Assembly: GCA_946409305.1 (NCBI GenBank)
Contig: CAMJVU010000002.1
Location: forward strand, 451 to 64,450
Length of the DNA stretch: 64,000 bases
Reading direction: 5' to 3'
Origin: an uncultured Cytophagales bacterium
GTDB lineage: Bacteria; Bacteroidota; Bacteroidia; Cytophagales; Amoebophilaceae
Position 1 is the first letter of the stretch. Every line of letters begins with the position of its first letter. The notes under the pieces are model-generated. The model did not search any database, was not told where the DNA came from, and worked only from the letters and a program-made list of their open reading frames with translations. The position numbers were made by a program, and so were the translations under genes. Of this stretch, positions 3,131 through 60,247 are shown piece after piece.

Positions 3131-3178
3131 ACTTTATAACAACAAACTAATATAAGAAAGCAAAAATAGCAAAACTTA

Positions 3179-3705: not shown

Positions 3706-3821
3706 ATAACGAGATAAAAAAAATCAACACCCAGTCGTACCAACCCGACCAGGGGCACTAATACAATAAAAAACTAGTGTTAGTTCGAATTCTGTGTGTT
3801 ATTACCTTGTGTATTAGGCCC

Positions 3822-3983: not shown

Positions 3984-4009
3984 AATTGTAACTTCTAAAA
4001 CCACGATAA
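3903..4009 (-). repeat. Conserved 5' cassette, copy A
   Basis: TTATCGTGGTTTTAGAAGTTACAATT-ATGAAGACAAATAAAATAGGGCACTTCATTTGTGGAGTGTTGGCAACATACGGATTAGTTGTTGCTTGTGGGAATATG. It differs from copy C at about 9 of 78 coding positions by hand alignment. Confidence 0.75.
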
Positions 4010-4192
4010 ATAAATACAAATAAAATACAAAAATCCGCTCAACTGATACCGGCACTCTTGGTGATTCACCGCTAATACCAAACATTTCACAACACATTAC
4101 AGTTTAAAGGATAACACCACTACTAATATCTTCTGTTCAAACCACATCGACGTTAACACACTCAGAAACGGACAAATAATTAGAATTAGTAC

Positions 4193-6343
4193 TCATATAT
4201 TATCCGGTATTCCTGAAGAACGTGAAGAACGCATTGAATCCTTATTAACAGAAACACCATCTTGAGAAGTCTGCGGAATTAACACTTTATGAGAAAGCAA
4301 ATATTTCCCATGATCAAGAACACGTACAATTTTTACTTCTATCTTATCACCTTTATTAAGTATATTTAGAAGGTTATCTATTTGAACATGATCAACCTCT
4401 GCAACCCTTAACAAACCAACTTTTCCAGGCATAAACTCAACAAATGCCTTATCCTCAAAAACCTCTTTCACTGTTCCGTCATATATCGTATCAACATCAG
4501 GAATAGTAATCAAATCATTTATTCTTTTCTTCACCTCATCCAACATTTGTTTATTTGAAGCAAAGATTCTAACTTCACCACAATCTTTCTTTTCATTGAT
4601 TGATATAGTACTGTCGGTGTCTTTTTGAAGTTTTTGAATCACACTTCCACCAACCCCAATAACCCTACCAATCATCTCCCTGTCGATATTCATGACACCG
4701 TAATGAGGTATAAATTCTTTAACTTCCTGCCTTGGAGTATCTACAGTTTTGGACATTTCTTTTAAAATAAAATTCAATCCTTCCCTAGACTGGGATAACG
4801 CCACTTTCAAGACGTCAATATTCAATCCCAATTTCTTAACGTCCAACTGGATTGCTGTTATTCCGCCACTAGTTCCGACAACTTTAAAATCCATATCCCC
4901 CAAATCATCCTCATCAGCAGATATATCAGACAATATGAAGAATTCCTCATTTGATTTAAAAATCAAACCCATAGCAATGCCTGCAACGTGAGACTTGATA
5001 CTTATCCCGGCATCCATTAATGCCAAACTACTACCACATACCGTGGCCATTGAAGAAGATCCATTAGAACTTAATATGTCAGACACTATTCTTATAACAA
5101 AATTATTATTAGCGGGTAGTATTGGTTTTATTCCATTACACGCTAAATTGCCATGACCTATTTCCCTCCTTGAGATACCCCTATTTTGTGATGTTTCCCC
5201 CGTAGCATAACTTGGGAAATTATAGTGTAATATAAAATCCACATAACTAGAAGACAACACTCCATCTTGCATTTGTTCGTTTCTTCTATCGCCTAAAGTC
5301 AAGCTTACAAGAGCTTGAGTTTCTCCTCTTGTAAATAAAGCCGACCCGTGAACATGAGGTAAAAAGTCAATAGAAGATGAGATACCTCTAACATCAGTCA
5401 ACTTCCTTCCATCGATACGCTTACCATCTTTCAATACATTTAATAATGCTTCCTTTTTCGATTCCTTTACAACGAAATCAGTACCATCATTATCCTTGTT
5501 ATTGGAAACGTACTGTTCAACAATGTTACTAATTGCAATATCTCTATCCTTTTTATTTTCTATTGATTGTGAATACACAGAGTACAAAGATCGTGTTAAA
5601 CCTTCGTCGGAATGAATACTCACATTCTCCTTGCTATCTACCCTGGAAATCCCAAAATTTGAATTATATTCATTCAGGAATTCCTCTTGAAATAAACATT
5701 GTTCCTTTATATGGAGCATTGCTACATTTATTCCTTCTAAAAGCACTTCATCTGCAATTTCGTTGCAAGATCCCTCAATCATCACTATATGGTCCTTCGT
5801 CCCACAAACAACCAATTTTGTAGACTTATCACTTAATTCCTTATCAACCAACTCCCACTTACCATCTGAATACCAAACAACAACCTCAGATACCGGAATA
5901 TTAAAACCAACATTTGATATCAACAACGCCAAAGAAGTTGAAAAACATGCAAACCTTTCAACAACAAGATTATTATTTGCAGAAAATAACGTAATATTAA
6001 CATTCACTTCTGACAAATTTCCCTTATCAAAGACAGGCCTAATACCTCTATCAACAAGTCTTGAAATCAATATTTCTCTATCCGTCAATTTTCCCTCTCT
6101 TTTTACGCTATATGGTGGAATCTTCCCAACAGCAGCATACTTCTCCTGATATGACACGCACAACGGGAAAAAGCCATAGTTTTTTTCCCTACCATTTCTA
6201 TTGCAGGTAATTGTTGTCAACAAAACATCACCTTCGTTTGAACGAACTAGAATCGCCCCGTCGGCTTGACAAGCTACTTCCCCTGTCTCGAAACAAAGCC
6301 CACAATAATCACTCCTAAACTCCTTTCTAAAAACATTATTCAT
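4193..6343 (-). CDS. pnp: Polyribonucleotide nucleotidyltransferase (PNPase)
   Basis: 716 aa with two RNase PH-like halves, a KH segment (GRVIGVGGSVIQKLQ) and an S1 segment (GTVKEVFEDKAFVEFMPGKVGLLRVAEV). It lies directly downstream of rpsO, the usual arrangement. The stop codon is TGA. Confidence 0.95.
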   Translation of the reverse strand: MNNVFRKEFRSDYCGLCFETGEVACQADGAILVRSNEGDVLLTTITCNRNGREKNYGFFPLCVSYQEKYAAVGKIPPYSVKREGKLTDREILISRLVDRGIRPVFDKGNLSEVNVNITLFSANNNLVVERFACFSTSLALLISNVGFNIPVSEVVVWYSDGKWELVDKELSDKSTKLVVCGTKDHIVMIEGSCNEIADEVLLEGINVAMLHIKEQCLFQEEFLNEYNSNFGISRVDSKENVSIHSDEGLTRSLYSVYSQSIENKKDRDIAISNIVEQYVSNNKDNDGTDFVVKESKKEALLNVLKDGKRIDGRKLTDVRGISSSIDFLPHVHGSALFTRGETQALVSLTLGDRRNEQMQDGVLSSSYVDFILHYNFPSYATGETSQNRGISRREIGHGNLACNGIKPILPANNNFVIRIVSDILSSNGSSSMATVCGSSLALMDAGISIKSHVAGIAMGLIFKSNEEFFILSDISADEDDLGDMDFKVVGTSGGITAIQLDVKKLGLNIDVLKVALSQSREGLNFILKEMSKTVDTPRQEVKEFIPHYGVMNIDREMIGRVIGVGGSVIQKLQKDTDSTISINEKKDCGEVRIFASNKQMLDEVKKRINDLITIPDVDTIYDGTVKEVFEDKAFVEFMPGKVGLLRVAEVDHVQIDNLLNILNKGDKIEVKIVRVLDHGKYLLSHKVLIPQTSQDGVSVNKDSMRSSRSSGIPDNI

Positions 6344-13307: not shown

Positions 13308-14270
13308 TCAACACTGGTTTTTTTCAATACGTTGTAAAGTTTTTATTATCTCATCCAGCGACGGCCTGTTTTTGTCGTATTTTGCCAACATAGATGTTAA
13401 TAAATTCTTTAATTCACTTGTTGACATTCCTCTAATATTTTTATCGTATTCAGCATTAAAGACTCCCCTTACTTTTAAAATTTTTCCCAAATATCTCTTT
13501 TTGTTTCCCAAAGACGCCACCAGGTTCGTTAAGTTATTTAAACTATATCTCCCAAAACCCTCCATTTCATCAATAAACACCATTTTGTACAATACTAACC
13601 CCAAACACCAAATATCATACTTGAATGGATCATAACCAGTACCTTTTACTAAACCATTAGCTACATCGAACGAATAATTTCTAAATGTTCCACGTTGCGC
13701 ACTCGACTTACCATCATTACATAAAAGCATTGATCCAAAATCGATTATTTTTACATTATTATTTTTATCAAACATTATATTGCTTGGTTTTAAATCCAAA
13801 TGAGCTATACGCTTCTTATGCAAATCACTAATAATCTTAACGATTTGTAAAAAATGATTAGATAACCTACGTGGATTATTTGAATAAAATCCCCTATTGA
13901 TCCTATCTTTTAACGTACACACACACCTTTCCATGATTTCATATCTTTTGCCATCATAGTCTACAACATTTTGTATTTTTGCAACGCCAGGCACCTGCTT
14001 TAATGTATTTATACTATCGTAGAACGTATCGTTATCTTCTTCTCCTACTTTCAAAACAAAATTATCATTCAATGTGTACACAGAGCCATTAAAACCACTA
14101 CCGATACGCTTTATTTCGTCCGGGTTACAGTTTATTCCAACATTACATTGATCTAACATCTTTACGATTTCCCGTTTTCTGAATACATCAAGAAAATTAC
14201 ACAAACTTACCTGAACAAGACTTACCTGGATAAGTATGAATTCGAACAAAACAGAGACGTAACCCCTCAT
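13308..14270 (-). CDS. Eukaryotic-like (Hanks-type) Ser/Thr protein kinase with N-terminal hydrophobic segment
   Basis: G-loop IGSGFNGSVY, catalytic loop IAHLDLKPSNIMF, KIIDFGS (DFG) and subdomain IX DIWCLGLVLY. Confidence 0.85.
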   Translation of the reverse strand: MRGYVSVLFEFILIQVSLVQVSLCNFLDVFRKREIVKMLDQCNVGINCNPDEIKRIGSGFNGSVYTLNDNFVLKVGEEDNDTFYDSINTLKQVPGVAKIQNVVDYDGKRYEIMERCVCTLKDRINRGFYSNNPRRLSNHFLQIVKIISDLHKKRIAHLDLKPSNIMFDKNNNVKIIDFGSMLLCNDGKSSAQRGTFRNYSFDVANGLVKGTGYDPFKYDIWCLGLVLYKMVFIDEMEGFGRYSLNNLTNLVASLGNKKRYLGKILKVRGVFNAEYDKNIRGMSTSELKNLLTSMLAKYDKNRPSLDEIIKTLQRIEKNQC

Positions 14271-19303: not shown

Positions 19304-19987
19304 ATGAAAGCTGAAATTTTCTATACGCTGATTGCTATTGCATGTTTAGACTCTACCTATATACCAAGAAACGGTAAAATAACTCCTCATAGAAATGACA
19401 TGTTAAGATCTAAAGATGGTGAGAGTAATCACCAACTATCTGTTACGTGGGGAGGACTTTGTGCAGGAAGTGTTTTGGGAACAATTATTTGTTACTCTAA
19501 TCACTGTTGCGGAGGTCTCCCATCTCTATTTAATATCAACTTCTCATACACATATTGGTTCAACAGGTACGTAGGCATTATTGGTAATCTTGCCTTATTT
19601 GGGGATCCATATTATTCCATTATTTGTTTTGGAGGTATTAGTAATTCTATAGTACAACTTGATTGGGGAATTAGATTGAGTTATAACGGTAGAGGAATTA
19701 ATAGAGGTAATGGTAGGTGTTATAGTGGAAGATTGATGGTCAATATAGCATGGGGAAGTTTTATGAGGATCGTAAATGTAGGTAGATTCGAACCTCAACT
19801 TGATAGATTTGGAATAAACATTAGTTTTGTCCCTATTGAAATGGTTACAAAGAGGGGATTTATTTGTGGAGCAAATGTAGTATGTTTTGATGTAGCATAT
19901 TGGTTTATTTATACTAGTAGTGATCCGGCCGTGTTGTCAATTTTAAAAGGAATAAAAATATATTTTGGTAAAATCTGGTCGTTATAG
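19304..19987 (+). CDS. Small beta-barrel OMP-like protein, paralogue family member P1
   Basis: Shares LSVTWGGL, YWFNRYVGI, QLDWGIRLSYNGRG...RCYSGRLMVNIAWGS, GINISFVPIE and a terminal YFGKIW with the ORFs at 23013, 40651, 53848, 55023 and 59858. Confidence 0.7.
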   Translation: MKAEIFYTLIAIACLDSTYIPRNGKITPHRNDMLRSKDGESNHQLSVTWGGLCAGSVLGTIICYSNHCCGGLPSLFNINFSYTYWFNRYVGIIGNLALFGDPYYSIICFGGISNSIVQLDWGIRLSYNGRGINRGNGRCYSGRLMVNIAWGSFMRIVNVGRFEPQLDRFGINISFVPIEMVTKRGFICGANVVCFDVAYWFIYTSSDPAVLSILKGIKIYFGKIWSL

Positions 19988-23012: not shown

Positions 23013-23714
23013 TTAGTGTAAACGTGAATTAGAAGATTCGACTTTTACTATCCATGATTTCCCAATATAAAATTCAAAACTAGCTAGTTGATCATAAAGG
23101 AAATTTTGAAAATTTCCTTTGAATACAGTTCCAAAATCGAGATTTAAAAACCTAATTCCCCAACATAATCCGCCATTCGTTTTTGATTTTTCAATTAGTG
23201 TTAATCTCATGTTCAAACCAATACATTTATACCATTGATCACTCGTCATATTCCCAAACATGACATTTAAGGTCATATTTCCACTGTATACTATATCTTT
23301 GTCCTTTTTATAAATGAAAAAAACACCACCACCAAGTTGGATAATAGACATCACATAATATCCAGACACAAAATCATAAAATCTTTCACCCCACGGACAA
23401 TTAACCAAGCATAATATACCGACTCTTTTATTTAGTCTGTATTTAAACTTATATTCCAGCTTACAAAGTAACATTATACCAGAAATCTCATCACTCCCTT
23501 GGTTCAAATAGGAATTAAGTAAGTTCTCAATAACACCTTTAATTAAGTTAACAACCGAAGCGGTATTCAGTCCACCATACACTAAAGAATGTTCTTTTGT
23601 TCTGTAATTATCTATTCGTTTCTTTTTCTTTACAGTAAAAAACGTTTCATTACGAATTCCATTTACAAACATCCAGAAAAACACCATTCCTCCTAATATC
23701 TTTGTAAAATTCAT
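23013..23714 (-). CDS. Small beta-barrel OMP-like protein, family member P2
   Basis: Family motifs HSLVYGGLNTASV, IIQLGGGVFFIYKK...NMTLNVMFGN, LNMRLTLIE, WGIRFLNLDFG and FEFYIGKSW. I start it at ATG 23714, because the track start at 23876 would overlap mnmE on the other strand. Confidence 0.65.
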   Translation of the reverse strand: MNFTKILGGMVFFWMFVNGIRNETFFTVKKKKRIDNYRTKEHSLVYGGLNTASVVNLIKGVIENLLNSYLNQGSDEISGIMLLCKLEYKFKYRLNKRVGILCLVNCPWGERFYDFVSGYYVMSIIQLGGGVFFIYKKDKDIVYSGNMTLNVMFGNMTSDQWYKCIGLNMRLTLIEKSKTNGGLCWGIRFLNLDFGTVFKGNFQNFLYDQLASFEFYIGKSWIVKVESSNSRLH

Positions 23715-25223: not shown

Positions 25224-26660
25224 GTGTACACATATTGTATGTTTGGGTTTCGATGTTACGATATGTGGAATGTTTTTAAGAAAGACGTGCTTTATAGATT
25301 CTTTGCTGTGCGTAATGGTGGTGTTTTACTGTGCGTGTTATTTAGTGGAGTTTCTTGTTATCCTCCTAAACTGAGTGAAACGTCAGGTAGTGAAATGTCG
25401 GGTGATAAGGTGCCGTATAAAGGTGACGAATACCAAAAGGTGTTAAAAGAGGACTATGGATACAAGGATAGTGAGAAACTGGAATTTTTACCTGTGAATA
25501 ATGTAAAGAAACCATATGTGACCGATGTTCTTAAGGATTATGTTAAACCTACGATGGTAGGATTGGAAAATGTGGGAGCGACTTGTTTTATGAATGCAAC
25601 TTTGCAGTGTTTGAGTCAGACTGAAAGGTTGGTTAGATATTTTTTAGATAAAAAAAACGAAGAAAGGATAAATAACAACAATATTACTATGAAAAAGAAC
25701 GAGGAATGTCAGTTGTCTCCTTCATTTCTTGAGGTTATCAAAGGACTGTGGAATAAGGATTGTAAATCTGGATATTATGATCCTAGCAGTTTCAGGGATC
25801 TTGTTGAAAAAATGAATCCGTTGTTTGAGAAGGGGAAAGCGGGTGATCCTAAGGATTTTATTATATTTATACTTGAACAGTTACACAAGGAGTTGAGTAA
25901 GAATGTTGCAGCTACCTGCGATGAATACAATAAAATGATACGACCGAATAAATTTTTCAATCAATATGACAAGAAAAGTGCATTTTCTTACTTTTTTGAA
26001 AATTTTACAAAAAACTGTTCGATAGTAACGGATACCTTTTTTGGAACTACTGAGACGATGCGTCAGTGTGTAAATTGCAAATTGATTTGCTACAATTATG
26101 AGGTTTTTAATTGCCTCATTTTTCCTTTGGATGAAGTAAGGAAGTTTGTGAACAATATGTCTATGAATAATATGAACAACATGTTTATGCCTATGAATGG
26201 AAATAGAGTTAGTCTACGTGATTGTTTCTTGTATAATGGAAAGACAGAATTGTTCTGTGGAGAAGATCAGAATTATTGTAATCGTTGTAAGGGTTTGCAT
26301 AATTCGGGATATACTTCCAGGATATATACAGAACCAAATGTTCTAGTTTTAATACTTAATAGAGGTAAGGGGAATATTTATAATGTTGGTTTGGATTTTG
26401 GTGAGTCTTTGGATATAACGGATTTTGTTGTGAACAAAAATGGAAGAAAAGTTTATGAATTGTATGGGGTTGTTACCCACTTTAAAGGAAACGATCCTAA
26501 GGGACTTGATTCTCATTTTATGGCATCTTGCAAGAATCCTATTGATAATGAGTGGTACAAATATAACGACAATAGTGTTACTAAAGTTAAAAATGTTCAA
26601 AGAGATGTTATAGAATTTGGAACTCCTTATATATTGTTTTACAAGAAAAGAGAAAAATAA
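25224..26660 (+). CDS. USP/UCH-type (C19) deubiquitinase-like protease, second copy, with N-terminal hydrophobic anchor
   Basis: Cys box GLENVGATCFMNATLQCL, a CxxC pair (CVNCKL...CNRCKG) in the finger region, and His box DSHFMASCKNPIDNEWYKYNDNSV. The start is uncertain (GTG 25224, ATG 25239 or ATG 25263). Confidence 0.85.
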   Translation: MYTYCMFGFRCYDMWNVFKKDVLYRFFAVRNGGVLLCVLFSGVSCYPPKLSETSGSEMSGDKVPYKGDEYQKVLKEDYGYKDSEKLEFLPVNNVKKPYVTDVLKDYVKPTMVGLENVGATCFMNATLQCLSQTERLVRYFLDKKNEERINNNNITMKKNEECQLSPSFLEVIKGLWNKDCKSGYYDPSSFRDLVEKMNPLFEKGKAGDPKDFIIFILEQLHKELSKNVAATCDEYNKMIRPNKFFNQYDKKSAFSYFFENFTKNCSIVTDTFFGTTETMRQCVNCKLICYNYEVFNCLIFPLDEVRKFVNNMSMNNMNNMFMPMNGNRVSLRDCFLYNGKTELFCGEDQNYCNRCKGLHNSGYTSRIYTEPNVLVLILNRGKGNIYNVGLDFGESLDITDFVVNKNGRKVYELYGVVTHFKGNDPKGLDSHFMASCKNPIDNEWYKYNDNSVTKVKNVQRDVIEFGTPYILFYKKREK

Positions 26661-26852
26661 CGATATATCTGTAATTTTCCTTTGTAATATCGAAGTGGTA
26701 TCATGTTTTTTATCTTTGTTTGTTATTGTGAGGGTTGGTGTTTTTTTCGTAAGGTATTTTTGATTTCTGTGATCATTTAAATCTGTAACGTTTTAAACGT
26801 AAGTATTTTTTATTTTTCTTTTAACAATATTTGGTTTTATTTATTTATTTAT

Positions 26853-26958
26853 TTATTGTGGTTGTAGAAATTGCAATTATGAAGACAAATAAAATGTTAC
26901 ACTTCGTTTGTGGAGTGTTAGTAGCACAAGGTATTGTGGTTACTTGCGTGAATGGATG
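26853..26958 (+). repeat. Conserved 5' cassette, copy B
   Basis: TTATTGTGGTTGTAGAAATTGCAATT-ATGAAGACAAATAAAATGTTACACTTCGTTTGTGGAGTGTTAGTAGCACAAGGTATTGTGGTTACTTGCGTGAATGG. Confidence 0.75.
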
Positions 26959-40650: not shown

Positions 40651-41427
40651 CTACATCTGATTCATACTTTTACTTTTACTTTTACTTTTACTTTTACTTT
40701 TACTTTTTTTTCGTGGTAAATCGATGTCAATCTTCACATCAAAAGTTCCCTCAAATAGCCATGTTCTACCAAAGAAAAATTCCAATGATGTAAAAGCTGA
40801 AAAACCTAAATTTTCCCATTTCCCTTTTATTAAACTTCCTACGTCAATTGTTCCCCAATTAATTCCCCAAGTAAAACTAGTTGGAGAAACACTTTCAAAA
40901 ATAGTAAGTTTCAAATTCATTCCTACCTTTTTAGGGTTGCATTCAAATTGTGAATTAACTAACACATCATCTGCGACACTCAACCACATCAGATTAATTG
41001 TCAACCTTCCTAAATAGCATTTCCTATCAACATAATCATTATTTCCTTCATTATTGTAACTCCAACAAATTCCCCACCCAAATTGAAACAACGGAACACT
41101 ATTCTTATCAAAACCAAAAGGAACATAAAAGTCCCCAATTAAAGTAAAACTACTGACCCATCCTCTCCGTTTAGTAACCCAATATTTGTGTAAGATGTTA
41201 ATTTTGAAAATGTATAATATTTGTGGAGGCATTTTGATGTTTGTACCACAAAATGCATCAACAGGGGCCATAAGTAAATTAAACGGAGTTGGCCCTGCGG
41301 TTATAGACAAAGATCCAAAATCTTTTTTTTTCGAATATTTACCTAGTCTTTTATGTCCTTCCTTGCTACTGTAACTATTTTGGATATTCATGTTTAAGAC
41401 AGCAACAATGATAAAAAACAACTTCAT
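40651..41427 (-). CDS. Small beta-barrel OMP-like protein, family member P3, with C-terminal (KS)7 tail
   Basis: Family motifs LSITAGP, FQFGWGICWSYNNEG...RKCYLGRLTINLMWLS, GMNLKLTIFE, WGINWGTIDVG and FFFGRTW, then KKSKSKSKSKSKSKS. Confidence 0.75.
   Translation of the reverse strand: MKLFFIIVAVLNMNIQNSYSSKEGHKRLGKYSKKKDFGSLSITAGPTPFNLLMAPVDAFCGTNIKMPPQILYIFKINILHKYWVTKRRGWVSSFTLIGDFYVPFGFDKNSVPLFQFGWGICWSYNNEGNNDYVDRKCYLGRLTINLMWLSVADDVLVNSQFECNPKKVGMNLKLTIFESVSPTSFTWGINWGTIDVGSLIKGKWENLGFSAFTSLEFFFGRTWLFEGTFDVKIDIDLPRKKSKSKSKSKSKSKSMNQM
40666..40707. repeat. Hexanucleotide microsatellite (ACTTTT)x7, coding (KS)7 on the minus strand
   Basis: Read directly; seven perfect units followed by a T run. 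Confidence 0.95.
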
Positions 41428-46981: not shown

Positions 46982-47884
46982 ATGAAGTTTGGAGTGTTTT
47001 TATTGCCTGTTTTATTCTGGTGTGGGTGGTATTGTCAAGAAGGCGAAAATGATGTACAACGAAATGAGAATTTAGATAAGAGAGAAAGTAGCCGTATAAG
47101 GGAGGATTGTCACACAGGAAGAAATGTTGATCCGATGGTTTCTCTTGTCGAGTACCTCAATGAAGGAAAATATGGGGAAATTTGGCGTGAGGGTACTGAT
47201 TTGAGACAATGCCTTGATCCGTTGATCGAAGAATTTAGGGGAATGTCTACTAAAAAAAGAACTGAGTTACTAGGTGATTTTGGAGTTATACTATTAGACA
47301 TTGATAGGTCTTTTGGGCGTAAAGTTCTTAATGTTAATGAGTATCTAAAGTCTTTATTAAATATTCTTTTTGATTTTTCTATAAGAGAAGGGAACGGATA
47401 TTCCCAGGGATATAATTATGTAGCGGTGGAGTGTTTGATTCAACGTAAAAATGATTACAATGAGAGTAAAAAATTGTTTTTTGATGTAATGACTAAGTTG
47501 AAAATAAAGTGTTTAGGTTACGAAGGTAATTACATCGGTTTATTTAAAAAATTTATAAAAGATAATTCTTTTAGAGGTCTTGTTTTAGTTGCTATCAGGG
47601 AAAAAGCAGATAAAACTTTTTTCGATAAGGAGTTTGAAGATTTATGGATCGGCGGGTTTTTGCAAGGATTATTATTCAGTTTTTTTAGTAGATCCCTTGA
47701 TTCCGGGAACTCATGGAAACGCATATTGTTATGTTTAGAAAAAGGAGAATGTTTTGACGTGTTTAATGAGTTTTGTTTAGCTTTGGATTATGTTTTAACA
47801 TGTGTTCGTGATAAATGTGGAAATGGGGGGAAGGTGGATTTTTATGTTGTGCATGATATTGTGAAAAAATATCTTAATGGTTAG
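46982..47884 (+). CDS. TBC-domain (RabGAP)-like protein with signal peptide
   Basis: MKFGVFLLPVLFWCGWYC, then VILLDIDRSFGRK (IxxDxxR arginine-finger motif) and, about 30 aa later, GNGYSQGYNYVAVECLI (YxQG glutamine-finger motif). Confidence 0.65.
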   Translation: MKFGVFLLPVLFWCGWYCQEGENDVQRNENLDKRESSRIREDCHTGRNVDPMVSLVEYLNEGKYGEIWREGTDLRQCLDPLIEEFRGMSTKKRTELLGDFGVILLDIDRSFGRKVLNVNEYLKSLLNILFDFSIREGNGYSQGYNYVAVECLIQRKNDYNESKKLFFDVMTKLKIKCLGYEGNYIGLFKKFIKDNSFRGLVLVAIREKADKTFFDKEFEDLWIGGFLQGLLFSFFSRSLDSGNSWKRILLCLEKGECFDVFNEFCLALDYVLTCVRDKCGNGGKVDFYVVHDIVKKYLNG

Positions 47885-51387: not shown

Positions 51388-52725
51388 ATGACTGATAGAA
51401 TAAGGGTTGGAATTTTATTTGGCGGTAGATCACGGGAACGAGAAGTATCTTTTGCAGGAGGAAGAACAGTTTATGATAGTATAGATAAAGAACTATACGA
51501 ACCAATCCCTATTTTTGTTGATGGGCACAACACGTTAATTAAGTTAAATTGGCAATATCTGTATCGTGGAACCATTAGGGATTTTTATCCTTCGAAAGAA
51601 ATGAGACCAAATGATCTTAAAAATATCAGAATATACGATGATTCAATAAAAAATATAGATTATTCACAATTGGGAGATATTGGCACAGTTATAAGGATAG
51701 AAAATTTAAAAAATATAGTTGACGTTATTTTCCTGATTCTTCATGGGTTAGACGGAGAAGATGGAAATATCCAAGGTATGTTAAATTTCTTAGACATCCC
51801 ATATACAGGATCTGGTATTTTGGGTTCTGCCATTGGAATAGATAAGGTATTCCAAAAAGAAATAATGAAGCAATATGGATATGAAGTCAATGAGTGTACA
51901 ATAATAACCAGTGAAGACTGGAATACCAAAAGAAATAAAATAATGGAGGATGTGTTATCAAAATATCATGTTCCATTCATCATTAAAAGTTCTTCTCAAG
52001 GATCTTCGATAGGCGTTTCAAGGGTAGATAATGTAGACAAACATGTTATATCTGATGTCATAAATAAAAGTTTTGGACAGTTAGTTGTACATGGCAATTC
52101 CTGGAATAAGATGAGTTATCAACAAAAAGAACAATTAGTATTTGATCAAATAGATTATCGTTACGGGATTGGATATCCAGTTATTATTGATGACTTGATA
52201 ATCTATTCTCCACTGGAGTTAATAAATCGTATAGATGGTCATTTACATAATAATGATGAATGTGTCATTTCTTCAAGTCAAAGATGTAATCATGTTATTG
52301 TCGAAGAATTTATAGAAGGTAGAGAATTCTCTTGTGTCGTTGTGCAAGATCATGGGTATAACCCTGTGGCTTTTCCTCCGACAGAAATAATAAAATCTGA
52401 TGGAATTTTTGATTACAGGAGTAAGTACTTACCAGGTGCAACGGTCAAACAAACCCCAATGAATGTTGATAAAATCACCTTAGAAAAGATAAGAGAAACA
52501 AGTGTACAAGTCTTTAAGGATTTGCATTTTAATGTTTACGCTAGAATAGATGGCTTCTTAACTAAAGAAAATGAGATAATAATAAATGATCCAAATACAA
52601 TAGCAGGAATGGAACCATCATCATTCATATTTCAACAAGCAGCAGAAATAGGGCTAACTCCAACAGATTTGATAACCTTCATATTAACGAACGCTACCAA
52701 ACCATCACAGAAACTAATAAAATAA
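51388..52725 (+). CDS. ddl: D-alanine--D-alanine ligase, unusually long (445 aa)
   Basis: RVGILFGGRSREREVSFAGGRTV, LHGLDGEDGNIQGMLNFLDIPYTGSG, PFIIKSSSQGSSIGV and EEFIEGREFSCVVV, with an ATP-grasp C-terminus. Confidence 0.85.
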   Translation: MTDRIRVGILFGGRSREREVSFAGGRTVYDSIDKELYEPIPIFVDGHNTLIKLNWQYLYRGTIRDFYPSKEMRPNDLKNIRIYDDSIKNIDYSQLGDIGTVIRIENLKNIVDVIFLILHGLDGEDGNIQGMLNFLDIPYTGSGILGSAIGIDKVFQKEIMKQYGYEVNECTIITSEDWNTKRNKIMEDVLSKYHVPFIIKSSSQGSSIGVSRVDNVDKHVISDVINKSFGQLVVHGNSWNKMSYQQKEQLVFDQIDYRYGIGYPVIIDDLIIYSPLELINRIDGHLHNNDECVISSSQRCNHVIVEEFIEGREFSCVVVQDHGYNPVAFPPTEIIKSDGIFDYRSKYLPGATVKQTPMNVDKITLEKIRETSVQVFKDLHFNVYARIDGFLTKENEIIINDPNTIAGMEPSSFIFQQAAEIGLTPTDLITFILTNATKPSQKLIK

Positions 52726-52785
52726 GAAACACAAACTACGAAACAATTAAGTGCGACAAATACTCATTAAAAAGATAGTCCTTAT

Positions 52786-53430
52786 CTAACACAGAAAACA
52801 CGAAGAACAGCCAAAACTACCTGCAGAACCATCTTTCTCTCCAACACCACCAATAGGTTTAATCTCACTACCACTACCACTGCTGGCTAATCCCCTCAGC
52901 TTACTGACAACCTCATCCCAATGATGACAACATTTTCCCGCTTCCTCATTAGCATTAAGAGACTTAATCATGCCATTAATCTCATCATTAGTTACACGTT
53001 TACCACAACCATTTAAGAAATCCTGAACAACATCATGAAGTACAAGATGATGTGTTGCGGCTAAATTTTTAGGAAGTTTATATTTGCTTCCTATATTATC
53101 TGATTTTACAAACTTACTGAATGATTCAAGGAAAAGACTATTCACTTTCATGGAGTCAAACAATATCGTATTTCACCCTTGATTATTAAACATACCACTC
53201 AACAAATCATCAAACCTAGCAAAATGCTCCAATATTAACTCCAAATCTCTAGTATCATCACCCTTTATCACACAGTCGAAATATTTCCCTAACCCTTCAT
53301 CGACCAAATATTGTTTGAATTTATCTTCCAATCCCTTATCAACAACTTCAGTCTTGTACAACTCTTGACAACAACCTACAACCACAAACACCCACACAAA
53401 CAAAACAATTTTTCGAATTTTCAAAACCAT
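52786..53430 (-). pseudogene. Secreted lipoprotein-like protein interrupted by one in-frame TGA; C-terminus CSSCFLC
   Basis: Track ORFs 53173..53430 (MVLKIRKIVLFVWVFVVVGCCQE..., lipobox VVGC) and 52786..53163 are in the same frame. They are separated only by TGA at 53173-53175 plus three sense codons (…FNNQG*NTILFDSMKV…). Confidence 0.6.
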
Positions 53431-53493
53431 ATCTTGATATAGTACAATTCCCTTGATTTAATTTATGTAATCATTTTATTGGTTTCTTTAATA

Positions 53494-53778
53494 TTAAGCC
53501 CTCAATGAAATAAAAAGACATTTCAGTAATTCTACCCAAAAAGATCCTTTACCCTTTTTTTCCTCATCAATTTGCCTCTGTATCTCAAAATCTTTACAAG
53601 ACACCTTATCTTCCTCTTCTTGAATGTCAGAAAAACCTTCAGGATCTTTTAATATTTCTTCATGAATTTTAGGCAATTCGTGGGAACTGCCAATATTTCC
53701 AGTTTCGTAAATTTTTGATGACACTCCTGATACAAACAAATAAAAAGAAAATAAACTAATTATCCATTTCATGATCAC
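53494..53778 (-). CDS. Small secreted acidic protein
   Basis: 94 aa with signal MIMKWIISLFSFYLFVSGVSS, then an E/D-rich segment. Start context GTGATC-ATG. Confidence 0.5.
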   Translation of the reverse strand: MIMKWIISLFSFYLFVSGVSSKIYETGNIGSSHELPKIHEEILKDPEGFSDIQEEEDKVSCKDFEIQRQIDEEKKGKGSFWVELLKCLFISLRA

Positions 53779-53847
53779 AAAATTCCATGCCTACAAACAT
53801 AAAATACTTTAAGGAATATTTAGTTGAATTTTATTGGTATTCTATTG

Positions 53848-54852
53848 TTATTCTGAACTATCATCATTCACAAATTGTTCATCCTGGTTGATATGGTCAA
53901 ACAAATTCCACGTTTTACCAATAAAAAATTCAAAATTACAAAAGGATAATAATACTTGTTTTTTTAAATAAAAAAGAAGATTATTTCTGTCAATCATAGC
54001 CAAGTCAACGATAACAAATCTAAAACCTAAAGTAAAACCATTAGAGTAGACCACTTTTAGTGGAGTAATTGTCAAATTAAACCCAAAATTTACCAGCAAA
54101 AATGCATCCTTAAAATAATAAACAGGTTCTTTAACAGGTTCTTTAACAGGTTCTTTAACAGGTTCTTTTAACACAACAGTGTAACTCTTGCCATAATACC
54201 TTTTCTTTATAAAAAAAGCCGGATCTTCGCCTTGTCCAAATATAGTCACACTATGAGGCGTCTTAGTAACCTTTACCCTATACTCACCTTCTTCTAATTC
54301 CGCAAGATTAAAATACTCATCACAATTAGTTCCTGGTTTTATGTTCACAAGACTTCCCAAAAGTACATTAAATGAGATATCTCCACCGAACTGTTTTTTC
54401 TCACTTTTATTATATTTCCATGTCATTCCACCACCAATTTGCAATATAGGAAAACAGTATTGACTACCCTCAGAAGTATTCTTTTCATTATATAAATTTC
54501 CCAACACCGTACATTTTGCGATGAGACCGATCTTCCAATTGAATGGATAATATTCATAGCAAAGGTTAGTTCTTAAAAGATAAAATAATCCAAACCAACC
54601 TTCAGTTTTTCTAAAATCAACAAATTTATTTAGAGCATAAACGATACTCCCAATATTTAATCCTCCACACGTAACAGATAAATGATGATTACCTCTAAAA
54701 ACAATATTGTCTCCATTATTATCAGGAAAACTTTTCACTTGAGTATCTTTTAACTCGTTGCCACTCTCTGGAATTATATTATCATTGCTAGACGCATTAA
54801 CAGAATTTAAGACTATAGTAACAACTAAATGTTGGAGGATTCTAAATTTCAT
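53848..54852 (-). CDS. Small beta-barrel OMP-like protein, family member P4, with about 70-aa insertion containing (KEPV)4
   Basis: MKFRILQHLVVTIVLNSVNASS signal. Family motifs HHLSVTCGGLNIGS, ILQIGGGMTWKYNK...GGDISFNVLLGS, FNLTITPLK and FEFFIGKTW. Between the middle strands there is an insertion, EYFNLAELEEGEYRVKV...VLKEPVKEPVKEPVKEPVYYF. Confidence 0.7.
   Translation of the reverse strand: MKFRILQHLVVTIVLNSVNASSNDNIIPESGNELKDTQVKSFPDNNGDNIVFRGNHHLSVTCGGLNIGSIVYALNKFVDFRKTEGWFGLFYLLRTNLCYEYYPFNWKIGLIAKCTVLGNLYNEKNTSEGSQYCFPILQIGGGMTWKYNKSEKKQFGGDISFNVLLGSLVNIKPGTNCDEYFNLAELEEGEYRVKVTKTPHSVTIFGQGEDPAFFIKKRYYGKSYTVVLKEPVKEPVKEPVKEPVYYFKDAFLLVNFGFNLTITPLKVVYSNGFTLGFRFVIVDLAMIDRNNLLFYLKKQVLLSFCNFEFFIGKTWNLFDHINQDEQFVNDDSSE
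54121..54168. repeat. 12-nt tandem repeat (AACAGGTTCTTT)x4, coding (KEPV)4 on the minus strand
   Basis: Read directly; four perfect units. Confidence 0.95.
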
Positions 54853-54903
54853 AAAATAAAATATTAATATTGCCATTTCATAAATAAAATATTAATATTG
54901 CAA
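54847..54903. repeat. Tandem duplication (29 + 28 nt) of the P4 translation-start region
   Basis: tttcataaaataaaatattaatattgcca / tttcataaataaaatattaatattgcaa. Each copy carries a minus-strand ATG. Confidence 0.9.
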
Positions 54904-55022
54904 TATCACTAATGCCAACTGCCCAAGTGAATATCTGTTAGTAACTTCATTCCTACTCAGAATTTGTTCTGCAAATTGAACATCTTTTTACTTTTAACAG
55001 GTTGCGTAAAAGATGTTTTTTG

Positions 55023-55775
55023 TTAAATGTCAATTTTGATTTTGGCATCAACATCTACTGTCAAATCTACCATCTTCCCGATAAATACTTCAATATTTCC
55101 GCCATTTATGAAAGTTAATATATCAGGGATACTGTTGTTTCTTTTCCCTATCAACCATCCTAGATCAAGAACACCGAAATTAATACCCCAATGGAGACCT
55201 GAGGGATAAACAATCTCAATTGGTGTCAACTTTAAGTTAACTCCAATATTTTTAGGTTTAAATTCGATACTAAGATCATCATCCAAAATACTTCCCCACA
55301 TCCCATTAGCAGTTAATCTTCCACTGCAACATCTCCTACTATTTTTTTTACTAGAACCATTGTGATTGTAACTCCAGATAATTCCAAAACCGATCTGCAA
55401 TATAGAACTGCCGTAGTCGTTGTTCCCAGTGATCGTGATATAACGATCTCCCAAAAAATTTATACCGTAACAAATTCCAAAACATCTATTAAACCAATAA
55501 GAACCTGAAACATGTGTGCGTAAAAATAACAGTAAAGCCCATGGTTGCAATTGAATAATACCTAATATTGGAATTGTATTTATTGCCCCTAATGTAAAAG
55601 AAAGTCGACTTTTACTATTGAGAGATAACATCTTACAATAACCTTTTTTATGATTTGATTTTCTCCTGGTGATATTTACAACTGAATTTTTATCGTTATT
55701 ATCAGGTAAAACAACACCATTAAATAGTATCAAAACAAAACAACATTTGGATTTTTGAAAGGATGATATCGACAT
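55023..55775 (-). CDS. Small beta-barrel OMP-like protein, family member P5
   Basis: Family motifs LSFTLGAIN, SYWFNRCFGI, ILQIGFGIIWSYNHNG...RRCCSGRLTANGMWGS, GVNLKLTPIE, WGINFGVLDLG and VFIGKM. Confidence 0.75.
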   Translation of the reverse strand: MSISSFQKSKCCFVLILFNGVVLPDNNDKNSVVNITRRKSNHKKGYCKMLSLNSKSRLSFTLGAINTIPILGIIQLQPWALLLFLRTHVSGSYWFNRCFGICYGINFLGDRYITITGNNDYGSSILQIGFGIIWSYNHNGSSKKNSRRCCSGRLTANGMWGSILDDDLSIEFKPKNIGVNLKLTPIEIVYPSGLHWGINFGVLDLGWLIGKRNNSIPDILTFINGGNIEVFIGKMVDLTVDVDAKIKIDI

Positions 55776-55779
55776 ATCT

Positions 55780-57162
55780 TCAACATACGATACTCCATGG
55801 TTCTAGTACTACCGGTTCTTTATTGTAAGCTTCTATGATATCATCATTTAAATATTTTTTATCTACAATACACTCATAAACATATTCACTGAACCATTCA
55901 TCCGACATTATAAATATTCCTTTTTTACCTACATCTTCTCCCCATGAATTCTGTACTTTCCAACGAACAGGTGCATTGTTGCTATCTAAATGAACGCCAG
56001 TTAGGGTCATAGCATGATTACATTCACTATTCAACAATAAAGCACGTTCCATCTTGTCGTATTTAAACTCAACGCCAAACATCTCAGATATATTAGATAC
56101 TTCTGTTGCCAGATAACCTTCTTCACGATACATTTCACTGGTCACGTCACAAGCAAACCATAATGGAGTGTTATCCTTCAATGATTTTATTGCTGTTTCC
56201 TTTATCAGATTTATCGGAACGTTTAAACTTTTATACGCGTTTTTACTAGTTTCTTCCATCATGTTTACGCAACCTTTATTCGTGTATGTTTGATAAAAAG
56301 GATACTGTAATGATGGATAATTTGTTAGAATTACGTAATCGTCAAGGTTGCACGATAAATATGTTTTCGAAAACTCCAGTGGAGTTGTTTTAATTGTTTT
56401 TATAACTTTTTTTTCCTCATCTTCATCCTTTTTCTTATCCTCATTCTTATTTTTCTTATCATCTTCAAGTTCGAAATCGAATGTAAACTCATCTACAGGC
56501 AAACCTATACATATGGCTAATATTTTATAAACTTCCTGTAGTGCATTTTCTTTTAAGTCGTAAACTACCTGTAAATCTTTGCTGTTCTTTCGAATTAAAG
56601 ATATATACTTAGTTACAACTGTATTGATCAGAATGTTCATCTCACAAGAACGAGAACTAACATCTGTTTCCCCCATTGCTTCTTTAGGACATATTCCATA
56701 TTTCTTCACCAATTTTACAAAATAGTGCCAAAAACCACCATCATTATCTCCAGATAAAAGCAGATCATATCTAAGTACACGAGAATCAATAGGTTCATTG
56801 ATGTGTTTGATTATATATTCAAGAGTAGTATTGGTTTTTTCAAGTTTATCATAAAACATCAAATAAGATTCAGATAACTCAATATCCTTGACATGTAGAT
56901 TTTTCTTTACAATTTCTCTCAATATATTCAAACCGGCGAACATCCAACATCTTCCAGACTTTTTCTGATTTGTAACGCTGGACATATCTTTAACTTCAAC
57001 GTTGAATATTGGTTGTAGCTTGAAAGACTCCTGCGTATTGAAGGCAGAATCAAATACTCCATTATTTTGTACTGCATTGCTAACGATTCTGAAATTTTTA
57101 TCTAGTAAAACACTGTTTTTCATCCTTTGTAAATCGTTTGTAGTTATTGTTTTATTACCCAT
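55780..57162 (-). CDS. pepC: Aminopeptidase C / bleomycin hydrolase (peptidase C1B)
   Basis: Catalytic Cys wording QKKSGRCWMFAGLN and His region CNHAMTLTGVH. It has a K/D/E-rich insertion DDKKNKNEDKKKDEDEEKK. Confidence 0.9.
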   Translation of the reverse strand: MGNKTITTNDLQRMKNSVLLDKNFRIVSNAVQNNGVFDSAFNTQESFKLQPIFNVEVKDMSSVTNQKKSGRCWMFAGLNILREIVKKNLHVKDIELSESYLMFYDKLEKTNTTLEYIIKHINEPIDSRVLRYDLLLSGDNDGGFWHYFVKLVKKYGICPKEAMGETDVSSRSCEMNILINTVVTKYISLIRKNSKDLQVVYDLKENALQEVYKILAICIGLPVDEFTFDFELEDDKKNKNEDKKKDEDEEKKVIKTIKTTPLEFSKTYLSCNLDDYVILTNYPSLQYPFYQTYTNKGCVNMMEETSKNAYKSLNVPINLIKETAIKSLKDNTPLWFACDVTSEMYREEGYLATEVSNISEMFGVEFKYDKMERALLLNSECNHAMTLTGVHLDSNNAPVRWKVQNSWGEDVGKKGIFIMSDEWFSEYVYECIVDKKYLNDDIIEAYNKEPVVLEPWSIVC

Positions 57163-57298
57163 AATCTGTTATCTACGAACAATAATTTATTTTAAATTAC
57201 AAGAACGTGCTCATTTTAAATAAACTCACGTAATTTTGTACTCTATCAAATGCCTTCAAAATGAGTTAATATCCCGATAATGTTCTCAATATTTAAAT

Positions 57299-59752
57299 AT
57301 GCAGGATGAAACAACAGGTAAAAGGATAATGCCGATTGAGATTACTGATGAAATGAAGAAAGCATATATCGATTATTCGATGTCTGTCATTGTTTCTCGT
57401 GCTATCCCTGATGTTAGAGATGGATTGAAACCTGTTCAAAGGCGTATTCTTTTTACGATGAATGATCTAGGATTGCAACATAACAAGCCTCACAGAAAAT
57501 GCGTAAAAACTGTCGGAGAAGTTATGGGATCGTATCATCCACATGGGGACAGTTCTATCTACATGGCCATGGTCCATCTTGCTCAAAAATGGTCTTTAAG
57601 ATATGTACTGATTGATGGTCAAGGTAATTTTGGATCTATAGATGGTGATGAACCAGCAGCTATGAGGTACACTGAAGCTAGAATGAATAAATATGCAGAA
57701 GAACTCCTAGTAGACATAGATAAGGATACTATTGACTGGACTGTTAACTTTGATGAAACAAAAAAAGAACCAACAGTTTTACCATCCAAATTACCAAATC
57801 TTTTAATTAATGGGACTACTGGTATCGCAGTAGGTATGGCCACAAATATGGCTCCACACAACTTGAAAGAGGTTGTAGATGCTATAACAGCTTATATCGA
57901 TAATTTTGACATTACCGTAGAAGAATTAATGCAATACGTAAAGGGTCCCGATTTCCCAACAGGTGCTATTATATGCGGTACAAAGGGAATATTTGATGCT
58001 TACAATACTGGAAGAGGGCGCATTGTTGTTCGTTCCAAAACAGAAATAATTGAAGATAATCATGGAAGAGCGCAGATAATTGTTACTGAAATACCTTTTG
58101 GAGTAAATAAGGCCTTATTAATCGAAAAAATAGCAGAACTAGTCAATGAAAAAAAAATAGAAGGAATTTCTGATATCCGTGATGAATCTGATAAACAAGG
58201 ATTAAGAATATCTATAGATCTTAAGCGTGAAGCCGTTGCACAGGTGGTTTTAAATAATCTTTTTGCTAATACATCTTTACAATACGCTTTTAATGTCAAT
58301 AATGTGTGTCTTGTTCATGGCCGTCCGATGACATTGGGGCTTAAAGATTTGATAAGATATTTTTATGAACATAGACATGAGGTAACAGTAAGACGTACAC
58401 AATTTGAATTAAAACAAGCAAAAACTAGAATACATATCCTAAATGGATATATCATCGCTCTAGACAATATTGATCCAATCATCAAATTGATAAAATCTTC
58501 GAAAGATAGTTCAGAGGCTATATCAAAAATGAACACCGATTATGGTTTAGATGAAATACAAGCCAAGGCTATATTGGAAATGAAGTTACAACGTCTCACG
58601 GGATTAGAACGAGAAAAAATACAAAAAGAACACGATGAACTCGTTGATTTAATAAAACGCTTAGAATCAATATTAGCTGATGATGAACTAGTTAAAGAAA
58701 TAATAAAGAATGAATTAATAGATCTTAAAAACAGATGCTCTGACGCTAGAAGGACAGAAATACAACAGGACTTTTCTGATTTAACAACAAAAGATATTAT
58801 TCCAGATGAAGATGTTGTCATAACATTATCGAATCAGGGGTACATTAAGAGAACTAATCTTTCTGAATATAGGTTGCAAAATAGAGGAGGGGTAGGTGCC
58901 AAAGGATCTGCAACAAAAGAAGATGATTTTATCAAATATTTAACTATCTCTTCTACACATAAATTTCTACTAGCTTTCACTATTAAAGGAGAATTATATT
59001 GGGAAAATGTCTATGAATTACCTGAAGGAACTAAGAATTCTAAGGGACGTGCTATCCAGAATATATTCCCTATAGAACCAGATGATAGATTAGCGTGTGT
59101 CCTGAATGTCGAAGATCTTAATAATGAGGAGTATTTAAATTCTCACTATGTTGTTTTTTGTACAAAAAAAGGTATAATTAAAAAGACTATTTTGAAAGCG
59201 TATTCTAATGTTCGTTCTAGTGGTATTCACGCGATTAATATCGTCGATGGAGATGAATTGTTAGATGCGAAAATAACAGATGGATATCAAGAAATAATAT
59301 TGGCGACACGTGATGGTAAGGCTATCAGGTTTGATGAATCTAATGTAAGACCAGTAGGAAGAACTTCTATTGGTGTTAAGGGTATTGACGTAAGTGGCGA
59401 TAATGAGGTAGTTGGATTCGTTTCTATCGATCCTAATGACAAGACTAAAACATTATTAGTGGTTAGTGAACGAGGTTTTGGGAAAAGATCTGATATTGAG
59501 GATTACAGAATTACAAATAGAGGAGGTAAAGGTGTCAAAACCATCAATATAACTCCTAAAACTGGTAATTTGGTTTCTATTGAAAGTGTAAAACAAGATG
59601 ATGAATTGATGATTATAAATGATTCTGGTGTGGCTATAAGAATCAATGTTAGAGATATTAGAATTTCTAGTAGAGCGACACAAGGCGTTACATTGATAAA
59701 GGTACCAAAAGGAGAGGTTATAAAATCAATCGCAAAAATAGAATGTATATAA
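57299..59752 (+). CDS. gyrA: DNA gyrase subunit A
   Basis: YIDYSMSVIVSRAIPDVRDGLKPVQRRILF, HPHGDSSIY, AAMRYTEARM (catalytic Tyr) and C-terminal beta-pinwheel repeats. Confidence 0.95.
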   Translation: MQDETTGKRIMPIEITDEMKKAYIDYSMSVIVSRAIPDVRDGLKPVQRRILFTMNDLGLQHNKPHRKCVKTVGEVMGSYHPHGDSSIYMAMVHLAQKWSLRYVLIDGQGNFGSIDGDEPAAMRYTEARMNKYAEELLVDIDKDTIDWTVNFDETKKEPTVLPSKLPNLLINGTTGIAVGMATNMAPHNLKEVVDAITAYIDNFDITVEELMQYVKGPDFPTGAIICGTKGIFDAYNTGRGRIVVRSKTEIIEDNHGRAQIIVTEIPFGVNKALLIEKIAELVNEKKIEGISDIRDESDKQGLRISIDLKREAVAQVVLNNLFANTSLQYAFNVNNVCLVHGRPMTLGLKDLIRYFYEHRHEVTVRRTQFELKQAKTRIHILNGYIIALDNIDPIIKLIKSSKDSSEAISKMNTDYGLDEIQAKAILEMKLQRLTGLEREKIQKEHDELVDLIKRLESILADDELVKEIIKNELIDLKNRCSDARRTEIQQDFSDLTTKDIIPDEDVVITLSNQGYIKRTNLSEYRLQNRGGVGAKGSATKEDDFIKYLTISSTHKFLLAFTIKGELYWENVYELPEGTKNSKGRAIQNIFPIEPDDRLACVLNVEDLNNEEYLNSHYVVFCTKKGIIKKTILKAYSNVRSSGIHAINIVDGDELLDAKITDGYQEIILATRDGKAIRFDESNVRPVGRTSIGVKGIDVSGDNEVVGFVSIDPNDKTKTLLVVSERGFGKRSDIEDYRITNRGGKGVKTINITPKTGNLVSIESVKQDDELMIINDSGVAIRINVRDIRISSRATQGVTLIKVPKGEVIKSIAKIECI

Positions 59753-59857: not shown

Positions 59858-60247
59858 TTAAGTTAGCGTAAAACTCCAACCTAGTGCAACCTTAATATTA
59901 TTAATCGTTCCACTAACTACTGCACTTCCGAAACCACCTTCCCAAAATCTAAGAATATCAATAGATATAAAATTGATCTCTAACCTGAAAGGACCTTTAG
60001 TAAACTTAAACGGTACCACATTTATGCATAATGCTACGTTTTTAATCACCCTATCAAGTGACATATTCATCGTTATATCTCCTCCAAATGAACCATATTT
60101 CTGCTCAAAATTACTTCCTCTACCATTGTAGTTCCATAAAAATCCTACCCCTAAAGTTGAATAAAGATAAGAATTGTTACCATCGCTCTTAGAAGCACAT
60201 ATACAATCCAAGATCCCTACTCTTAGCACTATAAACATATTGATCAA
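59858..60247 (-). pseudogene. 5'-truncated member (P6) of the beta-barrel OMP-like family
   Basis: Only the C-terminal two thirds is present: LGVGFLWNYNGRGSNFEQKYGSFGGDITMNMSL, INVVPFKF and LGWSF. There is no signal peptide and no LS(V/I)T.GG block in frame. Upstream DNA (60248-60300) reads YIGSEGGTLVTK-stop in another frame. Confidence 0.5.

Follow-up and report, generated by a model that had tools for sequence, protein, structure and literature searches.

The reduced genomes of the intracellular bacteria Anaplasma, Ehrlichia and Wolbachia encode many paralogues of small outer-membrane (OM) barrels, namely Msp2/P44, OMP-1/P28 and WSP (PF01617), in which conserved strands are combined with hypervariable surface loops, pseudogene copies and the exchange of alleles between strains. 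Variable outward loops that bind host molecules are also a feature of the eight-stranded barrels OmpX/Ail/Lom and of Opa and NspA from Neisseria, the strands of which reach beyond the membrane. Here we describe a family of paralogous genes in a 64-kb stretch of bacterial DNA from contig CAMJVU010000002.1 (64,000 nucleotides, ~32% G+C, referred to as the window), the products of which are predicted to be eight-stranded OM barrels with conserved strands and variable loops. The pattern is like that of the Anaplasmataceae and Wolbachia surface families, but there is no sequence relationship to these Surface_Ag_2 families, which belong to another phylum than the present one (probably Bacteroidota), and their organisation into an expression site and donor cassettes was not seen. 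The copies described here are scattered beside housekeeping genes, and each has a start and a signal sequence of its own.

Six related open reading frames (ORFs) had been proposed in the initial annotation to form one paralogous family, and all six were found at the places given:

19304-19987 (+): family member, intact, 227 aa, identical to P0015; the C-terminus is exactly ...FGKIWSL-COOH, a β-signal-like motif at the true end.
23013-23714 (-): family member, intact, 233 aa from the ATG at 23714, the most divergent copy; identified by homology.
40651-41427 (-): family member, intact, 258 aa, with a 32-aa C-terminal extension ending in (KS)7; identified by homology.
53848-54876 (-): family member, intact, 342-aa ORF (334 aa from the probable start), downstream gene of a tandem pair, with a large loop-3 insertion; identified by homology.
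55023-55775 (-): family member, intact, 250 aa, upstream gene of the tandem pair, with an 11-aa C-terminal extension; identified by homology, an AlphaFold2 model and fold matches; identical to P0014 of a public collection.
59858-60247 (-): N-terminally truncated remnant, 129 aa, covering part of strand 3 to strand 8; identified by homology to the C-terminal half of the others.

In pairwise BLASTP comparisons, the five full-length copies matched each other with E-values from 7e-30 (55023 versus 40651) to ~1e-4, and the ORF at 59858-60247 matched the C-terminal half of the others, with E = 6e-5 to the 55023 protein. When the 817 stop-to-stop ORFs of the window were searched with a hidden Markov model (HMM) built from the six copies, exactly those six were recovered, with the next match at an E-value of 0.38, and the ordered motif blocks described in the annotation were seen in the alignment. 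The family is thus confirmed, but the count of six has to be read as five full-length genes and one truncated remnant, the latter without a signal peptide and without strands 1 and 2, and with only ~210 bp of non-homologous DNA upstream. Identity between pairs of intact window copies was 20-37%. The closest paralogue of 55023 in the BLASTP comparisons was 40651 and not its tandem neighbour 53848; the two tandem genes are not recent duplicates of each other.

Two of the start codons needed attention. The mechanically derived ORF of the 23013 gene extends to a TTG at 23876 and overlaps mnmE; the start is most likely the ATG at 23714, and a 233-aa database entry from a 65,670-bp contig agrees with the gene begun there. 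The true start of the 53848 gene is probably at MKFRIL, position 54852; the 8 extra codons of its ORF stem from a 28-bp tandem duplication that is absent from other strains.

The fold was modelled with AlphaFold2 for the 55023 protein. A first model built from 10 sequences was mediocre (pLDDT 63.5), and an alignment of 36 sequences gave a mean pLDDT of 78.6 and a pTM of 0.71, with 116 residues at or above 90. In this model, a helix across the signal-like N-terminus is followed by a disordered polar linker of ~30 aa to about residue 54, and then by eight long strands (residues 55-62, 87-94, 99-113, 121-135, 149-164, 170-189, 194-204 and 229-239). Almost all Foldseek matches of the model in the PDB were integral outer-membrane barrels, with eight-stranded ones first (prob 0.93-1.00). 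The top matches were the transmembrane (TM) domain of OmpA (1g90, E = 9.7e-4, prob 1.00; 2ge4), Ail (2n2l) and the OprF barrel (4rlc, TM-score by target 0.52); further OM barrels among the matches were NspA, PagP, Opa60, PagL and AlkL, and the first, weaker model gave a similar picture. We therefore predict from the models that the family adopts an eight-stranded antiparallel closed barrel of the OmpA-TM/OmpX/Ail/Opa architectural class. The annotation had suggested a small OM barrel of eight to ten strands, and the model agrees with the lower of these numbers and not with ten; a soluble fold was not obtained.

The likeness to the N-terminal TM domain of OmpA and to the OprF barrel (PF01389), the best fold matches, extends to eight antiparallel strands, four long loops, short turns at the opposite end and a length of ~170-190 residues. 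The family differs from these proteins in having no detectable sequence similarity to them and no C-terminal peptidoglycan-binding domain, in place of which there is a polar N-terminal linker and, in some copies, a short C-terminal tail. OmpA is moreover single-copy and conserved, whereas the family is multicopy and hypervariable, in which it is like Opa. Ail, NspA and Opa are all represented among the fold matches (2n2l, 3qra, 1p4t, 2mlh).

The mature proteins are ~180-200 residues in size, and the eight strands are contained in ~185 residues. One face of the strands consists to 65% of I/L/V/F/W/Y while G, S, N and T are the most frequent on the other, which also contains K and R; alternation of hydrophobic and polar residues was seen in seven of the eight strands, although with permutation p-values per strand of only 0.02-0.35. 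These features bear on whether the proteins could instead be secreted or periplasmic soluble β-barrels or β-sandwiches, such as lipocalin/YceI-like binding proteins or effectors. Signal-like N-termini would be expected of such proteins too, C-terminal extensions and polar N-terminal linkers are unusual for outer-membrane proteins (OMPs), and the first fold search contained, as far down as rank 46 (E = 1.2), a single YceI-like soluble barrel. We nevertheless regard a soluble fold as highly improbable: nearly all significant or near-significant fold matches were integral outer-membrane barrels, the strands of 8-20 residues with an I/L/V/F/W/Y-rich face and a glycine-rich polar face show the reverse of the arrangement in soluble barrels, the core of which is hydrophobic, and the C-terminal GxxWxΦ-COOH is typical of substrates of the β-barrel assembly machinery (BAM).

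The family does not fit general diffusion porins of the 16-18-stranded trimeric type, which have ~300-350 mature residues and a constriction loop L3, given eight strands in so short a protein and matches to OmpF/OmpC that covered only part of the target, with TM-scores of 0.15-0.21. Eight strands around a small polar lumen make a general porin unlikely and favour binding of the OmpX/Ail/Opa type or a structural role like that of OmpA.

To locate the variation among paralogues, we compared segment lengths in 20 full-length members. Strand lengths were almost constant (exactly so for b2 and b5), and turns T1 and T3 were ~4 residues long. The odd-numbered connections, in contrast, varied widely, with 22-63 residues in L1, 3-10 in L2, 4-79 in L3 and 2-31 in L4. 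The proposal that differences between the copies concentrate in loops is borne out by these lengths (2-79 residues in the loops against fixed strands) and by the comparison of strains described below. Four features of the window belong to this variation:

54100-54342 (-): 81-aa loop-3 insertion between predicted strands 5 and 6 of the 53848 gene product, containing (KEPV)4; seen in the alignment.
54121-54173: perfect in-frame 12-nt repeat, x4.3, encoding (KEPV)4; from a tandem-repeat scan.
40665-40707: perfect in-frame 6-nt repeat (AAAAGT), x7.2, encoding (KS)7 in the 40651 gene.
54845-54908 (no strand assigned): 28-bp tandem duplication, x2.2, around the start codon of the 53848 gene; present once in sister strains.

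Of the five tandem repeats that scored best in the window, three are located in family genes. The (KEPV)4 insertion noted in the annotation is real and spans residues 179-259 of the 342-aa ORF. The (KS)7 tail is likewise real, but it was misplaced among the loops: it follows the last strand and is for this reason predicted to be periplasmic.

The distribution of the variation also bears on the possibility that the OM barrels act as channels for small solutes or hydrophobic substrates, in the manner of OmpW, OprG, AlkL or the OmpA pore, and import host compounds, the paralogues differing in substrate. The fold class would be identical, and the model was matched by both AlkL and the OprF barrel; besides, a genome of ~0.55 Mb must import many metabolites and no general porin was seen in the window. 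Divergence in substrate would, however, be expected to alter the lumen or a lateral gate, whereas G, S, N, T, K and R abound at the inward positions, the length of the strands is strictly kept and the variation is limited to loops and termini. Some strains also dispense with copies, and there was no sequence match to the OmpW or OmpA_membrane models. Taken together, we consider a channel function unlikely.

Inspection of the N-termini showed M-(K/R) at the start of the five intact window copies and of nearly all full-length relatives, and then a hydrophobic stretch of 10-15 residues that often ends in (C)LNS. At the other end, the last strand has a conserved GxxWxΦ, and in at least 14 members, one of which is the 19304 copy of the window, the protein stops precisely at G-x-x-[W/F]-x-Φ-COOH. 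This end fits the core of the consensus published for the BAM β-signal, ζxGxx[Ω/Φ]x[Ω/Φ] (PMC10945584), a signal that is usually found at the extreme C-terminus. The cysteine content of the family, 2.6%, was compared with that of 39 other window proteins, 2.25%; with cysteine being high in the window as a whole, the cysteines of the family are not a special feature, and a chlamydia-like disulfide-linked envelope was dropped as an explanation.

The view that no known family could be assigned was upheld in every sequence search. There was no match to Pfam at E <= 1 for the six window proteins and none at E <= 10 for any of 36 members using hmmscan, which includes the models OmpA_membrane, OMP_b-brl, OMP_b-brl_2, OmpW, Opacity, Ail_Lom and Surface_Ag_2. 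Nor was the family matched by NCBIfam, including its OMP models, and a profile search of PDB sequences yielded one chance match only (E = 0.56). The absence of matches to Ail_Lom and Opacity separates the family in sequence from Ail and Opa. Of the Bacteroidota 'porin family' barrels (OMP_b-brl, PF13505; OMP_b-brl_2, PF13568; PorT-like), the eight-stranded barrels of similar length that would be expected as typical of the phylum, none was matched by the 36 members at that threshold, and the exhaustive search described next recovered no broad family.

An exhaustive HMMER search of 1.84 billion representative proteins gave 39 matches, of which 6 were spurious. These six (P0040-P0044 and P0048) are long phage-tail-like proteins that share only a short repeated motif, NGTGI(S/T)WSYN. 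The ~30 true relatives fall into ~28 groups at >= 55% identity, and this small number indicates that the family is confined to a very narrow lineage. A second, word-indexed homology search with a 23-sequence alignment added little (3 proteins only), and a scan of Joint Genome Institute (JGI) metagenomes with a 5-sequence alignment produced 61 pattern matches and no relative. Exact-protein look-ups of three housekeeping proteins of the window and of P0002, P0010, P0018 and P0021 found no record, and the gyrA neighbourhood in 20 other genomes contained no family member. The sequence family is previously undescribed and lineage-restricted, while the general phenomenon and the fold are already well known. 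New OMP families are frequently found; in a large-scale survey, over 270,000 OMPs are reported to have no relation to any solved structure (PMC10629564).

Further copies were found outside the window. A seventh, P0017, is intact. It lies beyond the left end of the window, ~9 kb from the first position, and its neighbours are xerC-like, UCH and PNPase genes, the latter two of which correspond to positions 1697-6343 of the window. P0034, also intact, adjoins def on another contig from the same sample. P0018 and P0021 lie together on one 11-kb contig, and P0054, P0023 and P0002 on other contigs deposited at NCBI. The two intact copies P0017 and P0034 are those at L029:64-759 and L028:15-818, and a further, degraded copy, split into three short ORFs, was found at L030:2060-2676. 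At least ten copies per genome are plausible. Three unannotated ORFs of L028 (235-244 aa), which were considered as a further tandem cluster, had no match to the family HMM and were discarded.

Near-identical contigs occur in several metagenome assemblies, one of them with a contig name prefix (STEW19) that points to a rumen study, and those used here for comparison (L021-L025) are 95-97% identical to the window. Between strains, amino-acid differences amounted to 18.6% in L1-L4 as compared with 5.0% in strands plus turns (Fisher p = 4.7e-7) and 4.6% in strands alone. Variation also affected whole segments and whole copies. L022 and L024 have one KEPV unit where the window has four, and the C-terminal tail of the 40651 protein is entirely different in L021. 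The 53848 orthologue carries two frameshifts (-2 and +1) in non-repetitive sequence in L022-L025, which come from four independent assemblies, and is intact in L026. At the 59858 locus, L022 and L024 have a full-length, highly divergent allele of 247 aa, of which only 103 bp can be aligned with the window remnant, at 80% identity, while the flanks are 92-97% identical. These comparisons indicate purifying selection on the barrel, freedom or pressure to change in the loops and termini, and turnover of whole copies.

The ratio of nonsynonymous to synonymous substitutions (dN/dS) was 0.41 for 55023, 1.4 for 40651 and 1.5-2.2 for 53848, the last being partly a comparison with a pseudogene, as against 0.09-0.23 for gyrA, pepC, pheT, ddl and PBP2. 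Diversifying selection and relaxed constraint are not separable on these data, and part of the variation is plain gene decay. In its strongest form, relaxed selection would mean that the family is evolutionary debris, an orphan family drifting to loss without an important present function, its loop variation reflecting weaker structural constraint. The 59858 remnant, the two frameshifts fixed in four assemblies and the broken copy in L030 are what such a process would leave behind; dN/dS values >= 1 for 40651 and 53848 resemble those of other orphan genes, and that decay is still going on is shown by a nonsense mutation in a gene nearby. Against this, the five long intact ORFs have kept the conserved glycine, aromatic and β-signal positions despite their low pairwise identities, which implies long-term purifying selection on the barrel. 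The low dN/dS of 55023, the difference between strands and loops and the persistence of ~28 sequence groups despite strong genome reduction point the same way, and we consider it quite unlikely that the family as a whole is debris.

The gene with this mutation, at 52786-53430 (-), follows directly downstream of the two tandem genes and encodes a putative lipoprotein (leader ...VVVGCC). Its product has 212 aa in four related strains. In the window it is divided into ORFs of 85 and 125 aa by a nonsense mutation, CGA to TGA, and also has a 6-bp in-frame insertion. A scan of positions 52600-57400 for σ70-type promoters and terminators gave matches below or near the shuffle expectation.

Phase variation of the Opa type was considered and rejected as an explanation of the repeats and frameshifts. 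On/off switching of Opa depends on out-of-frame pentanucleotide repeats in the leader, whereas the 12-nt and 6-nt repeats of the family are in frame and the frameshifts lie off the repeats and are fixed in four assemblies; classical phase variation is thus unsupported.

Synonymous substitution frequencies (dS) relative to L022 were unevenly distributed. They were 0.33 for gyrA (57299-59752, +), 0.14 for pepC and 0.09 for the 55023 gene, as compared with 0.01-0.05 elsewhere, so that dS at gyrA is about ten times that elsewhere, and the peak abuts the replaced 59858 locus. This suggests either that a more distantly related strain was the source of a segment imported by recombination or that the variation is linked to a balanced polymorphism.

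Other genes in the window point to a diderm envelope (MlaD, a SurA-N/PpiD-like chaperone, LspA, MreB, MreC, PBP2 and Ddl). Four genes are eukaryote-like:

1697-3130 (-): ubiquitin C-terminal hydrolase (UCH) gene.
25224-26660 (+): UCH gene.
13308-14270 (-): Ser/Thr protein kinase gene.
46982-47884 (+): gene with a weak RabGAP-TBC match.

Genes of this kind are typical of host-manipulating intracellular symbionts such as Amoebophilus. The RabGAP-TBC-like gene evolves fast between strains (dN/dS 1.09), and the syntenic locus L022 contains a TPR protein. The best matches of GyrA in a set of species-representative genomes, one of them from a Bacteroidota genome, did not exceed 56-58% identity. Amoebophilaceae endosymbionts of rumen ciliates have genomes of 0.53-0.6 Mb with 32-33% GC, and the preprint that describes them names no outer-membrane protein family (bioRxiv 10.1101/2025.07.29.667580).

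Considering all of the above, we think it reasonably probable that the family consists of variable, multicopy eight-stranded OM barrels that are exported by Sec, assembled by BAM and act as adhesin or host-factor-binding surface proteins of a ciliate symbiont. The N-terminal signal peptide would export each protein, and the BAM machinery would insert it into the outer membrane via the β-signal-like last strand, GxxWxΦ. Once folded into an eight-stranded antiparallel β-barrel, as the model predicts, the protein would expose L1-L4 to the outside; these loops change by substitution, insertions and deletions, and in-frame repeat expansion, and the strands and the turns predicted to be periplasmic are conserved. 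Closely related strains differ by the gain, truncation, frameshifting or swapping of whole copies. Abundant variable surface proteins of this kind would contact host structures, for which binding as adhesins or to host factors is more likely than a role as diffusion pores. The setting would differ from that of Opa in that the host is a ciliate without adaptive immunity. The annotation had described the proteins as surface-exposed, diversifying and acting at the host interface; of this, the concentration of changes in loops stands, diversification is indistinguishable from relaxed constraint, and we infer exposure and host role.

Several observations weigh against this interpretation. With respect to the fold, the Foldseek TM-scores were moderate (0.37 by query and 0.49-0.56 by target), and barrel closure and side-chain direction rest on DSSP strings and the Foldseek matches. 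The period-2 hydrophobicity of single strands was not individually significant in permutations (p = 0.02-0.8), with a Fisher-combined value of ~0.006. Turn T2 (SYNGxGxN...), with its 7-22 residues, is long, and no other segment is as conserved; this would not be expected of a periplasmic turn. With respect to assembly, the ζ position of the β-signal is aromatic or hydrophobic here and not polar, four of the five intact window copies, including both tandem genes, have 10-33 residues past the motif, which is atypical for classical OMPs, and BamA is not encoded within the 64-kb window. With respect to selection, other orphan genes of the window have equally high dN/dS (0.99-1.8); because high values are common to these orphans and one family copy is a fixed pseudogene in a sister strain, relaxed constraint accounts for part of the variation. 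Finally, the placement of the bacterium, which probably belongs to the Amoebophilaceae that live as endosymbionts in rumen ciliates and has a genome of ~0.55 Mb, comes from the agreement of traits with the lineage of the preprint and, as regards the rumen, also from the STEW19 prefix, and not from a sequence match.

A more far-reaching version of the adhesin interpretation is that the family forms the main variable surface coat of the rumen-ciliate endosymbiont, that the repertoire of a strain sets the ciliate species it can colonise and that the gyrA-proximal locus is under balancing selection. We put this forward as a speculation that is unlikely to hold. Host range would then depend on which copies are intact, on length variants of loop 3 and the repeats, and on the divergent allele beside gyrA; balancing selection is suggested for that locus because synonymous divergence peaks there. 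If true, a previously unknown OMP family would be a determinant of host range in a protist endosymbiosis.

If the adhesin interpretation in its simpler form is right, around ten or more of the few hundred genes in an endosymbiont genome of ~0.55 Mb encode one variable OM-barrel family. Paralogues are usually lost as genomes shrink, and the fact that these were kept would make the family central to life in the ciliate. The proteins are candidates for the contact surface between symbiont and host in rumen protozoa, a system that has only recently been recognised, and could serve as markers for strain typing or for detection by fluorescence in situ hybridisation (FISH) or antibodies. To specialists, the addition of a new and so far unannotated sequence family to the small-OMP fold class should be useful rather than surprising.

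Some other features of the window were recorded in passing. Cysteine accounts for 41 residues (12%) of a 343-aa protein encoded at 26831-27862 (+), which also has a hydrophobic N-terminus and an acidic region of repeats that results from a 48-bp tandem repeat, x2.1, at 27013-27115. It had no Pfam match and could be a CxxC-rich zinc-binding protein or a secreted effector. The top-scoring tandem repeat of the window (120 bp, x1.8, 77% matches, 33555-33770) is located inside an ORF at 33519-34178 (-) for a lysine/glutamate-rich protein of 219 aa with a lipoprotein-like leader (MIVGC) and no Pfam match. The D-Ala-D-Ala ligase at 51388-52725 (+) is 445 aa long, ~100 aa more than usual, and was matched by Ddl models in two separate stretches, which implies a sizeable internal insertion.

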